Shown one piece after another: positions 59,555 through 60,881 of a stretch of 64,000 bases of DNA. Numbering within the stretch: the stretch's first letter is position 1; each line of letters begins with the position of its first letter. The stretch lies in the NCBI RefSeq assembly GCF_003991155.1, contig NZ_CP031293.1; one strand, written 5' to 3'. A program made the position numbers and the translations under genes. A model generated the notes under the pieces. The model was given only the letters and a program-made list of their open reading frames with translations, was not told the DNA's origin and searched no databases. Origin of the DNA: Escherichia coli (GTDB lineage Bacteria; Pseudomonadota; Gammaproteobacteria; Enterobacterales; Enterobacteriaceae).

Positions 59555-59923
59555 ATGTCAGCACAAGAAAAAACAGTACAGATTGATTCTTTTGATGCGA
59601 AATTTTTAGATATAAATACATTAAGCAGGCTTATTTATGAACGTAAGAGTTTTGTGATCGAAAATGTTTCCGATGTTAGTGAAACGGTAAAAAGAGTGGA
59701 GCATGAAATAGAGAAAACGAAATTAAGTTGTCGTGTATATACTGAGTACAGGAGTACAGCTTTAGCTGGTTCTTTATGGTCACCAACCGTAATTCTGGGA
59801 GTGGCGAGTGCAGTAGCAATAGGTGTTCATAATTTATCTACATGGAACCCCGATTATGAAATCGGTAAGAACTATATTAAACGGAGATTATCGGTAAAAT
59901 ATAAAAAGGCAGAAGTATTGTGA
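59555..59923 (+). CDS. Hypothetical protein (122 aa) with one predicted transmembrane segment
   Basis: AGGAAA ribosome-binding site before ATG 59555; hydrophobic stretch ALAGSLWSPTVILGVASAVAIGV; AT-rich; no family recognised. Confidence 0.4.
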   Translation: MSAQEKTVQIDSFDAKFLDINTLSRLIYERKSFVIENVSDVSETVKRVEHEIEKTKLSCRVYTEYRSTALAGSLWSPTVILGVASAVAIGVHNLSTWNPDYEIGKNYIKRRLSVKYKKAEVL

Positions 59924-60140
59924 TCGGTTACTCCAGTGCCCCTGCCTGTTTGTATTCTGGGGAGGTTGTATTCACATAATTTCAGACAGGCGTTCACGTC
60001 CTCACTGAGAAGATATATTTATTTTGTGTAGAGTAAAAGTCTGGCTTCCGTAGTGTGGAGTGTTGAGGCTGCCTTTAGTCCGGTTTTTAAATATTAAAAA
60101 TATATATTAAAATGATGATACAATAATGGAGATAATTGAA

Positions 60141-60881
60141 ATGAATAAGGTTTTTGTTGTTTCAGTGGTGGCCGCAGCCTGTGTATTTGCAGCAAATGCA
60201 GGAGCAAAGGAAGGTAAAAGTGGTTTTTATCTGACCGGTAAAGCCGGTGCCTCTGTGGTGTCACTTTCAGACCAGCGTTTCCTGTCAGGAGATGAGGAAG
60301 AAACATCAAAGTATAAAGGCGGCGATGACCATGATACGGTATTCAGTGGCGGTATTGCGGCCGGTTATGATTTTTATCCGCAGTTCAGTATTCCGGTTCG
60401 TACAGAACTGGAGTTTTACGCGCGTGGAAAAGCTGATTCGAAGTATAACGTAGATAAAGACAGCTGGTCAGGTGGTTACTGGCGTGATGACCTGAAGAAT
60501 GAGGTGTCAGTCAACACACTAATGCTGAATGCGTACTATGACTTCCGGAATGACAGCGCATTCACACCATGGGTATCCGCAGGGATTGGCTACGCCAGAA
60601 TTCACCAGAAAACAACCGGTATCAGTACCTGGGATTATGAGTACGGAAGCAGTGGTCGCGAATCGTTGTCACGTTCAGGCTCTGCTGACAACTTCGCATG
60701 GAGCCTTGGCGCGGGTGTCCGCTATGACGTAACCCCGGATATCGCTCTGGACCTCAGCTATCGCTATCTTGATGCAGGTGACAGCAGTGTGAGTTACAAG
60801 GACGAGTGGGGCGATAAATATAAGTCAGAAGTTGATGTTAAAAGTCATGACATCATGCTTGGTATGACTTATAACTTCTGA
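60141..60881 (+). CDS. Hra/Hek/Tia-family outer-membrane beta-barrel adhesin/invasin
   Basis: ATG 60141 (MNKVFVVSVVAAACVFAANA signal peptide) after a GGAGA ribosome-binding site; alternating-hydrophobic beta-strand pattern and terminal ...LGMTYNF aromatic residue typical of small outer-membrane barrels. Family assignment is from recollection. Confidence 0.6.
   Translation: MNKVFVVSVVAAACVFAANAGAKEGKSGFYLTGKAGASVVSLSDQRFLSGDEEETSKYKGGDDHDTVFSGGIAAGYDFYPQFSIPVRTELEFYARGKADSKYNVDKDSWSGGYWRDDLKNEVSVNTLMLNAYYDFRNDSAFTPWVSAGIGYARIHQKTTGISTWDYEYGSSGRESLSRSGSADNFAWSLGAGVRYDVTPDIALDLSYRYLDAGDSSVSYKDEWGDKYKSEVDVKSHDIMLGMTYNF

Follow-up and report, generated by a model that had tools for sequence, protein, structure and literature searches.

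In the 64,000-nucleotide stretch of Escherichia coli DNA analysed here (the window), a 122-aa open reading frame lies a short distance upstream of, and co-oriented with, a gene for an outer-membrane barrel protein of the Hra/Hek/Tia type. This arrangement raises the question of whether the two genes form a small adhesin module, as the first-pass annotation had proposed, or whether they became neighbours in some other way. We favour the second answer, with a probability of roughly 0.7: the small ORF and the barrel gene, hek, would be adjacent through island mosaicism and not as an adhesin module.

The layout itself is as first described. The small ORF (59555-59923, plus strand) has a ribosome-binding site, AGGA, 7 nt before its ATG, and is followed after a gap of 217 bp by the 246-codon barrel gene (60141-60881). 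Both lie downstream of the pap operon, with papG-III and papX upstream and a GTPase pseudogene, a transposase remnant and a decayed tia-like 5' stub in between. The features from the pap end onwards are:

57439..57990, plus strand: papX, gene for a MarR-type regulator (PGAP annotation of a 100%-identical record; Pfam MarR, E=3.6e-11)
58475..58821, minus strand: pseudogene of a YeeP/YkfA-like GTP-binding protein, frameshifted and with its N-terminus gone (annotation)
58822..58992, no strand assigned: remnant of a DDE transposase gene (identity to annotated genes)
59344..59536, plus strand: tia-type upstream region and decayed tia-like 5' end (DNA identity, promoter scan)
59555..59923, plus strand: small ORF, 122 aa (RefSeq WP_001275823.1, 'hypothetical protein')
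59924..60068, plus strand: spacer accompanying the small ORF (genome matches)
60069..60140, plus strand: hek-proximal upstream region (direct repeats D1 and D3; start of homology in other hek loci)
60141..60881, plus strand: hek, 246 aa (PF13505; identity to the UTI89 protein)
60959..60983, no strand assigned: bidirectional intrinsic terminator-like hairpin with a 10 bp stem, 3' of hek
61063..62565, plus strand: phosphoethanolamine (pEtN) transferase gene, CptA/EptB-like, 500 aa (Pfam Sulfatase and EptA_B_N; NCBIfam CptA-like)

The final gene of the pap (papG-III) operon, papX, marks the upstream edge of a mosaic region. Beyond it, the GTPase pseudogene is debris of an island backbone, and the transposase remnant is 87.7% identical to genes annotated as 'DDE-type integrase/transposase/recombinase' in other E. 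coli genomes. One further ORF (76 aa, 59379-59609) was taken as spurious; it overlaps the decayed tia stub. Base composition is uneven across the pair, such that the description of both genes as AT-rich holds for the small ORF (35.0% GC, with 37.3% in its spacer) but not for hek, whose 47.8% is close to the window mean of 48.3%.

As the first-pass annotation had correctly supposed, the barrel gene belongs to the Hra/Hek/Tia family; its product is Hek, an already known E. coli adhesin/invasin. This protein matches PF13505 (OMP_b-brl, E=4.2e-21, residues 9-246) and OmpA_membrane (E=8e-7), carries the signal peptide MNKVFVVSVVAAACVFAANAGA and has an eight-stranded barrel; the start codon at 60141 is favoured by PGAP and by its ribosome-binding site. 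Identity to a UTI89 protein (4785401-4786141) is 99.1% by tblastn over 224 aa and 98.8% over 246 codons, and these coordinates fall inside those that a review gives for PAI-UTI89-leuX, the island said there to carry Hek. The window protein is 64.8% identical to annotated Tia, which agrees with the published figure of about 65-67%. With the rest of the family (Hek/Hra1/Hes/Hra2/Tia/PagN) it shares the OMP_b-brl domain, the signal peptide and a pathogenicity-island site near pap, and in itself it shows no notable difference from them. To our knowledge, proteins of the Hra family act alone, and we know of no accessory gene described for any of them. The Hek of strain RS218 confers heat-resistant haemagglutination, autoaggregation, and adhesion and invasion via surface loop 2 (PMC2553418), and the coding sequences of Hra1, Hes and PagN, each cloned alone, confer the haemagglutination and adhesion phenotypes in K-12/HB101 (PMC5539235, PMC2553418). 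On the other side of hek, a pEtN transferase gene occurs 3' of hek or tia in 5 of the 6 locus contexts examined (it is absent in E66), which makes it the most consistent hek/tia-linked gene among those loci, and a noteworthy one because LPS is reported to mask PagN, a related adhesin.

Purifying selection acts on the small ORF, a genuine and intact gene (in comparison with its relatives, pN is 0.17-0.22 and pS 0.72-0.83). Homologues were found in Gamma-, Beta- and Epsilonproteobacteria, down to about 30-45% identity and with invariant motifs; 42 occur among 90% clusters, and the family comprises 257 clusters at 50% identity. The family motifs are CRVYTEYR and HNxxTWNPDYEIGKN, with His92 and Pro99 invariant. 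Searches of Pfam, NCBIfam and PADLOC gave no match for the family, the only hit in PHROGs was weak and of unknown function, a sequence-profile search of solved structures in the PDB gave none, and the accessions of the small protein went unmentioned in the literature searched. A phage origin of the gene was rejected, with matches in 0 of 50,697 phage records.

The small protein had been described as having one transmembrane helix, a view that its sequence and model do not bear out well. Its best 19-residue Kyte-Doolittle mean is 1.71 (1.24-1.94 in relatives), a borderline value, and an AlphaFold model built on 74 sequences shows a confident alpha/beta core, which includes both the N- and the C-terminal strands and from which a broken helical hairpin at residues 66-93 (pLDDT below 50) sticks out. 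This hairpin segment is hydrophobic and rich in Ala and Gly. In four independent cluster representatives (P0045, P0114, P0159 and P0183) a TerB domain is fused C-terminally to the small domain, and in P0045 it follows the hydrophobic segment with no further transmembrane segment. On balance these observations tip, if doubtfully, away from a single span and towards a segment that is re-entrant or peripheral. TerD with Sel1 repeats is fused to the small domain in P0139, and an association with WYL was also seen in the family. Known TerB-domain proteins (tellurite-resistance or stress proteins, and the membrane-proximal DUF533/YebE-like ones) are linked to the small domain by fusion only; the window, unlike TerB systems, has the stand-alone domain without a TerB part, and no ter genes nearby.

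The contexts of the family outside the hek block bear on the proposed module. A scan covering 100,044 species' genomes supplied 67 of our loci; with others added, 72 family loci besides the one at hek, in many genera, were compared, and in none of these (0/72) did an Hra-like barrel or a pEtN transferase gene occur within 6 kb. The recurrent neighbours were YagK/YfjJ (22 loci), XRE (17), Gp3-like (16), YqaJ (10), RNase H (8), DUF932 (7) and DUF2787 (7) genes. At native loci the small gene is typically first or second in transcription divergent from an XRE repressor and has variable cargo on its 3' side, and at enterobacterial native loci it is convergent with an intact YeeP-like GTPase gene. 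Two family copies per genome were seen in Alcanivorax, Rhodoferax, Vibrio renipiscarius and Dechloromonas, and many loci lie at contig ends. About 250-290 IncF plasmids carry a 70%-identical paralogue, which is solitary there and flanked by IS110 and a DUF2726 gene, and in a survey of plasmids 254 carried a gene of the family, 201 of them conjugative. The members of this family are mobile-element backbone genes, and the elements that carry them are proteobacterial integrative islands and conjugative plasmids. The tRNA-linked enterobacterial islands of the CP4-57/CP4-44/CP4-6 type are among the closest known systems: their backbone genes include YfjJ, the YeeP/YkfA GTPase, DUF932, KlcA anti-restriction, RadC and CbeA/CbtA, and close relatives of the small ORF stand among these same genes (loci L004, L005, L012, L013 and L081), convergent with the GTPase gene and adjoined by the DUF932, anti-restriction and RadC genes. 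The window differs from them in that the small ORF has been excised from the backbone, with the GTPase pseudogene retained nearby.

Seen from the side of hek the picture is similar. The small ORF stands in front of hek in about 461-474 of 5426 E. coli genomes (the region gave matches in up to 1699 genomes, and both genes were present in 461), and most E. coli hek, hra and tia genes are not preceded by it; one locus, L003, encodes a 97.8%-identical Hek without it. The spacer is present in 474 genomes, its match adjoining a 'hypothetical protein' feature or none in every record listed (20/474). The stub, the small ORF, hek and the ept gene move as one E. coli block, found in two island contexts, and the chromosomal allele of the small ORF in E. 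coli is essentially always 5' of hek. The pairing is confined to this one block, and the adhesin module fails on the very ground that the first-pass annotation had named for refuting it, since elsewhere the two genes are not conserved together.

Stable and intact linkage in E. coli, beside a diverging hek, is also the pattern expected of a functional pair and counts against mosaicism. Under a functional coupling, the small protein would be associated with the inner membrane and would promote or control how the exported protein encoded just downstream is expressed, exported or displayed; the pair seen here would then exemplify a widespread cassette in which a small protein is combined with variable exported cargo. 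The intact ORF in two contexts and the terminator-free gap before hek fit such a coupling, as does the nature of the downstream neighbours in other taxa: by a crude signal-peptide heuristic, exported-like N-termini occur in 7 of the 17 distinct clusters of co-directional +1 neighbours, against 54 of 527 background clusters (10%; p=0.0013), and in Dechloromonas-type islands (L020-L023) an OmpA-like barrel is encoded 67 bp 3' of the small gene. This enrichment, with the Dechloromonas barrel included, likewise counts against the mosaic reading. It becomes marginal, however, at an assumed background of 20-25% (p=0.04-0.11), and a hotspot of cargo insertion 3' of a backbone gene would account for it equally well. 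Moreover, the exported proteins are unrelated among themselves (OmpA-like, LprI, lipoproteins and unknowns), many family loci have a convergent or cytoplasmic neighbour in that position, and the plasmid copies are solitary; a near-identical Hek without the small ORF and the function of Hra-family genes cloned alone also go against a partnership. We regard coupling as unlikely. A broader version, in which an undescribed family of membrane-associated, TerB-linked mobile-element proteins acts on interchangeable exported cargo encoded immediately downstream, strikes us as improbable too. Prophage 'moron' surface genes such as lom and bor of lambda, exported cargo placed at fixed slots of a mobile-element backbone, offer a parallel in that unrelated exported proteins fill the position just 3' of the conserved small gene in different elements, and Hek is related in fold to small barrels of the Ail/Lom type; unlike the morons, the small gene was in none of the 50,697 phage records, and autonomous promoter-terminator units for its downstream neighbours would be putative.

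Comparison of the two E. coli alleles of the block bears on whether the small ORF still does anything at all. The two small proteins are 98.4% identical, with 3 synonymous and 2 non-synonymous changes between the genes, and selection is not measurable between them because only these 5 substitutions separate them; the adjoining hek genes have diverged or recombined (dS 0.19). The small ORF could in principle be an inert hitchhiker in the hek block, stripped of its native regulation and function and intact only through the youth of the block, a reading that we hold to be distinctly improbable. It would suit a gene separated from its native XRE and GTPase neighbours and lying amid pseudogenes and IS debris, with too few substitutions to measure selection and with several truncated variants (68-100 aa) among E. 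coli sequences. Against it, the ORF is full length in both block alleles despite a difference of about 5% in flanking non-coding DNA, it retains its ribosome-binding site behind a promoter-like site, and constraint on the family overall is strong.

The junctions around the small ORF indicate how the pair might have been assembled. Upstream, 59345-59458 is 92% identical to the DNA directly 5' of tia (PU-1) and of an Hra-type gene (E66), and the tia alignment of the 59344..59536 region extends past the tia start codon. This region contains a triple-GATC palindrome (GATC at 59385, 59398 and 59407), a promoter-like TTTACC-18-TAAAAT at 59423-59452, found by promoter scan, and a relic of a ribosome-binding site, GGAGATAAC, at 59489-59497, whose ATG is lost and which is followed by about 12 decayed codons. 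Downstream, 60069..60140 repeats in diverged form (72-76% identity) the promoter-proximal part of the same region together with its ribosome-binding site; promoter-like hexamers stand at 60086-60113 and 60107-60136, and the ribosome-binding site GGAG at 60128. In hek loci without the small ORF homology begins at about 60073-60128, and the homologous DNA left upstream of hek amounts to no more than about 70 bp. Between the decayed tia-type promoter and stub on one side and the hek upstream DNA on the other lies a piece of roughly 530 bp that consists only of the small-ORF coding sequence and its spacer, and DNA homology of the small ORF to its other copies is limited to the coding sequence (59571-59908).

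D1 and D3, the direct repeats 639-640 bp apart, come from two different Hra-type alleles, because they are only 72-76% identical to each other and the upstream copy is 92% identical to the tia locus. On these grounds a target-site duplication was rejected. A self-contained mobile cassette (MITE- or integron-cassette-like) was also rejected, since homology ends at the coding sequence; neither terminal inverted repeats nor an attC-like structure was found in the small-ORF segment. The spacer showed no stable structure (RNA folding z-score -0.5) and no match to Rfam, and no terminator-like site was detected in it or in the 217-bp gap as a whole. Co-transcription of the small ORF and hek is possible because there is no terminator between them.

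The GATC-bearing region is 40-60 bp away from the barrel start at tia, E66 and other loci; here the distance is 95 bp to the small ORF and about 680 bp to hek. Our literature search returned no relevant studies of hek, hra1 or tia promoters. An effect in cis, whereby the 640-bp insertion parts hek from the tia-type triple-GATC region and alters hek switching other than via the protein (Dam-dependent control being lost or altered, for example, or hek coming to depend on read-through), would accord with this displacement and with the short homologous upstream sequence of hek, but is very unlikely, given that the papers searched gave no evidence of phase variation or Dam regulation in Hra-family genes, that the Hek-like locus L003 lacks GATC sites entirely, and that such an effect leaves unexplained why the protein family is under purifying selection.

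Mosaicism remains the reading that we prefer. The small ORF would be a mobile-element gene brought beside hek by recombination, rather than a dedicated adhesin helper. It would now be transcribed from the captured tia-type promoter with its triple-GATC palindrome, and read-through across the terminator-free spacer may carry transcription on into hek, although hek has retained promoter-like hexamers and a ribosome-binding site of its own. More tentatively, we envisage the small protein as a cytoplasmic alpha/beta domain that may be held at the inner membrane face by a short hydrophobic re-entrant hairpin, and that might act on behalf of the mobile element in stress or conflict, in a way related to TerB-type modules, rather than in the assembly of Hek. 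This proposed function draws on domain fusions, gene context and a model that is partly of low confidence.

Hek is already known, and the family of the small ORF is uncharacterised. Widespread but without a family model, this family is a candidate for annotation, and since its domain recurs in TerB fusions it is also a candidate for a role in element-host conflict or stress. Hek, a virulence-associated adhesin, apparently does not need the upstream gene. Nevertheless, a putatively captured tia-type promoter and an additional gene precede hek in about 9% of complete E. coli genomes, so that its regulation may differ from that at hra1 and tia loci, and the junction should be considered in work on hek typing and expression in UPEC and NMEC.

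The first-pass annotation had described a 122-aa ORF with a good ribosome-binding site (RBS), upstream of and co-oriented with a 246-aa barrel gene, and both ORFs are indeed present, separated by 217 bp and preceded by AGGA 7 nt 5' of the ATG (small ORF) and GGAG 9 nt 5' of the ATG (hek).

Features of the window around the gene pair
58475-58992: YeeP-like GTPase pseudogene and DDE transposase remnant, between papX and the hek block
59489-59536: relic of a tia-like RBS and first ~12 codons, directly 5' of the small ORF's own RBS
59555-59923, + strand: small ORF, 122 aa, WP_001275823.1, annotated 'hypothetical protein'
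60141-60881, + strand: barrel gene (hek), 246 aa, annotated start 60141
61063-62565, + strand: phosphoethanolamine (pEtN) transferase

That description is largely right, save for two details, the base composition of the barrel gene and the transmembrane helix. The suggestion that both genes are AT-rich holds for the small ORF (35.0% GC) and not for the barrel gene (47.8%, against 48.3% for the window); the spacer has 37.3% GC. A 100% match to the region is found in the complete genome of E. coli FDAARGOS_1284, where the genes run papE-papF-papG-III, papX, GTP-binding protein pseudogene (- strand), small ORF, 'outer membrane protein', phosphoethanolamine transferase, two hypothetical proteins (one a 357-aa TPR protein), integrase and tRNA-Phe. 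The GTPase pseudogene and transposase remnant are scars of island assembly. Between the transferase gene and the island integrase/tRNA-Phe, the window holds the 357-aa TPR-repeat protein (62925-63998, - strand) and a 76-aa ORF annotated hypothetical (62552-62782, - strand), which overlaps the transferase 3' end.

Judged by its sequence, the barrel protein is the already known Hek, bearing out its assignment as Hra/Hek/Tia-like: it matches PF13505 (OMP_b-brl, E=4e-21) and shares 98.8-99.1% identity with the UTI89 protein at 4785401-4786141, within PAI-UTI89-leuX (4779711-4900870), which a review gives as Hek-bearing (PMC7545054). Its identity to annotated Tia is 64.8%, in agreement with published figures for the Hra family (PMC5539235, PMC7512150).

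Among 5426 complete E. coli genomes, as many as 1699 gave a match within the 1.7-kb region, mainly to the barrel gene, and only 461 carry the small ORF and barrel gene together; queried alone, the small ORF finds matches in 709 complete E. coli genomes. Chromosomal small-ORF records at 95% identity or more number about 500, and about 294 records at ~70% identity are essentially all plasmid-borne (293 plasmid places). The plasmid paralogue (117 aa, WP_000005489.1, about 70% identical; compared loci L008/L009, 4994-5347; IncFII plasmids such as pEC517_1) has an IS110 transposase on one side and a DUF2726 gene on the other; IncFII repA is about 2.5 kb away, and there is no barrel gene beside it. 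Hundreds of IncF resistance plasmids from E. coli and Klebsiella carry it. In PLSDB, 254 plasmids carry the plasmid copy (201 conjugative); among phages searched, none carry the gene. A species-wide scan (one genome each, 100,044 species) returned 67 loci of the small-ORF family in Vibrio, Alcanivorax, Pseudomonas, Aeromonas, Dechloromonas, Rhodoferax, Ralstonia, Hafnia, Trabulsiella, Sulfurimonas and others; often a genome had two copies, or the locus lay at the end of a contig. At no non-E. coli locus did a Hra-like barrel or pEtN transferase gene lie within 6 kb of the small gene. Hra-type genes also occur without the small ORF: tia in PU-1, a Hra-type gene in E66 and a 97.8%-identical Hek in 21AH006. 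In these comparisons the pairing is absent outside one E. coli block (stub of a decayed tia-like 5' end, small ORF, hek, transferase gene), and the proposal that the two genes form a small adhesin module is not supported beyond it; moreover, haemagglutination, aggregation and adhesion are obtained when nothing but the adhesin coding sequence is cloned, as seen with Hra1 and Hes in HB101 and with PagN in K-12 (PMC5539235, PMC2553418).

Of the genes at the loci examined, the CptA/EptB-like transferase shows the most constant linkage to the Hra family: it is found about 180 bp 3' of hek or tia in five island contexts (5/6; none in E66). It is IS66-interrupted in one context and frameshifted or truncated in two (compared loci L002, 5078-6577; L011, 5008-6507; L003, a Hek-like locus without the small ORF, 4991-5518 and 7963-8907; L079, 4725-5264; L080, 4152-5653). 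The related adhesin PagN is reported to be masked by LPS (PMC2553418).

The junction upstream of hek is mosaic. Positions 59344-59536 align to the sequence immediately 5' of tia in PU-1 (92% over 59345-59458), continuing across its RBS and start to cover about 12 codons, and the start codon of the relic has been lost (TGAAATGAAAAAGG to TGAGCTTAAAACG). E66 has the same 110-bp element 40-60 bp 5' of its barrel gene, and 21AH006 a more diverged copy. A second copy of the promoter-proximal part and RBS, at 60069-60152 (72-76% identity; spacing 639-640 bp), runs into hek, and the match of hek loci without the small ORF starts at 60073-60128. Hence a ~530-bp segment (small ORF and 145-bp spacer) separates a decayed tia-type 5' end from the last 70 bp of hek's own upstream sequence; mosaic recombination probably placed the small ORF before hek. 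The spacer is found in 474 genomes, and in all records listed (20 of 474) the feature adjoining its match, if any, is a 'hypothetical protein'. KOr019 and OkiPb01708 have the block too, in a second setting that lacks pap; there the small ORF shows 98.4% identity, with 3 synonymous and 2 non-synonymous changes, and the barrel gene has dS 0.19.

Promoter-like sequences precede both genes (TTTACC-18-TAAAAT within the captured tia-type region, 59423-59452; hexamers at 60086-60136 before hek), and a strong terminator-like site lies 3' of hek (60959-60983). Since no terminator-like site was found between the genes and the spacer RNA has no unusual structure (z=-0.5), transcription of the small ORF could read through into hek; the spacer has no Rfam match. 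Three GATC sites in 26 bp form a palindrome (ATGATCGATTTTGTCGATCGATTCGATCGAA, 59385-59413) in the conserved upstream region of tia-type genes; this may be a Dam-methylation-sensitive regulatory site, and it scores also as a terminator-like hairpin. In the window it lies 5' of the small ORF, not of hek.

By comparative evidence the small ORF is a bona fide gene of an uncharacterised, unnamed mobile-element family. Searching 5.8 billion proteins gave 42 relatives, the most distant at 43% identity, from E. coli, Klebsiella, an Enterobacterales isolate and Betaproteobacteria; a profile run against 1.84 billion cluster representatives gave 257 clusters at E<=0.001. Against relatives ~70% identical in DNA, pN is 0.17-0.22 and pS, essentially saturated, 0.72-0.83; DNA matches to other copies end with the coding sequence limits (59571-59908). 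Conserved motifs include C59-R-V-Y-T-E-Y-R and H92-N-x-x-T-W-N-P-D-Y-E-I-G-K-N, with His92 and Pro99 invariant in 74 sequences. Pfam, NCBIfam, PADLOC and a PDB sequence profile search gave zero matches, and PHROGs a single weak one of unknown function. An AlphaFold model from the 74 sequences has a confident core (pLDDT about 90; b11-14, a20-28, b33-36, a41-54, b59-63, b101-106, b111-116), and the hydrophobic, Ala/Gly-rich residues 66-93 form a broken helical hairpin (pLDDT below 50). The transmembrane helix first assigned to the protein is doubtful given this hairpin, a hydrophobicity (1.71; 1.24-1.94 in relatives) borderline for a membrane span, and the TerB fusion P0045, which has no further hydrophobic span after the small domain. 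Among the cluster-representative proteins with a fused or duplicated domain (P0045, P0114, P0159, P0183, P0139, P0081, P0088, P0043), TerB lies C-terminal of the small domain in four natural fusions (the first four), TerD and Sel1 repeats precede it in P0139, biotin-lipoyl domains occur on two proteins, and one carries a tandem duplication of the domain. One TerB fusion (locus L082, 898-4772) sits in an apparent operon 3' of a WYL/WCX regulator and 5' of unknown 526-aa and 150-aa proteins.

In a census of 72 loci, the recurrent neighbours of the small gene were YagK/YfjJ (22 loci), a divergent XRE repressor (17), a Gp3-like 'recombination directionality factor-like' protein (16), YqaJ (10), RNase H (8), DUF932 (7) and DUF2787 (7). 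In enterobacteria it is convergent with a YeeP/YkfA-like GTPase and adjoins DUF932, anti-restriction, RadC and CbeA/CbtA genes, which form the backbone of tRNA-linked islands of the CP4 type; one E. coli copy is in an island adjoining proBA. Vibrio loci (L030, L031, L034, L035, L037, L048, L055, L072) conserve the arrangement DUF2787 or RNase H, 83-aa ORF, small gene, 239-aa HTH-like protein, 450-490-aa lipoprotein and YfjJ (opposite strand). The genes upstream of the small gene stay the same from genus to genus and those downstream differ, so it is a backbone gene, at the edge of a cargo region.

Among co-directional genes within 170 bp 3' of the small gene at non-E. coli loci, 7 of 17 distinct clusters have a signal-peptide-like N-terminus by a home-made heuristic, compared with 54 of 527 other ORF clusters from those loci (Fisher p=0.0013); if a background of 20-25% is assumed, p=0.04-0.11. 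Dechloromonas-type betaproteobacterial islands (L020-L023, 6404-7702; also L058) offer another, independent example of the small gene beside a barrel protein, here of 432 aa with OmpA_membrane/OMP_b-brl and autotransporter-beta-like domains, 67 bp downstream on the same strand. The seven exported-like neighbours are mutually unrelated (OmpA-like barrel, LprI-like protein, lipoprotein, unknowns), and we consider a functional link between the small protein and exported proteins improbable. We favour instead a possible hotspot for surface-protein cargo in the slot that follows this small backbone gene.
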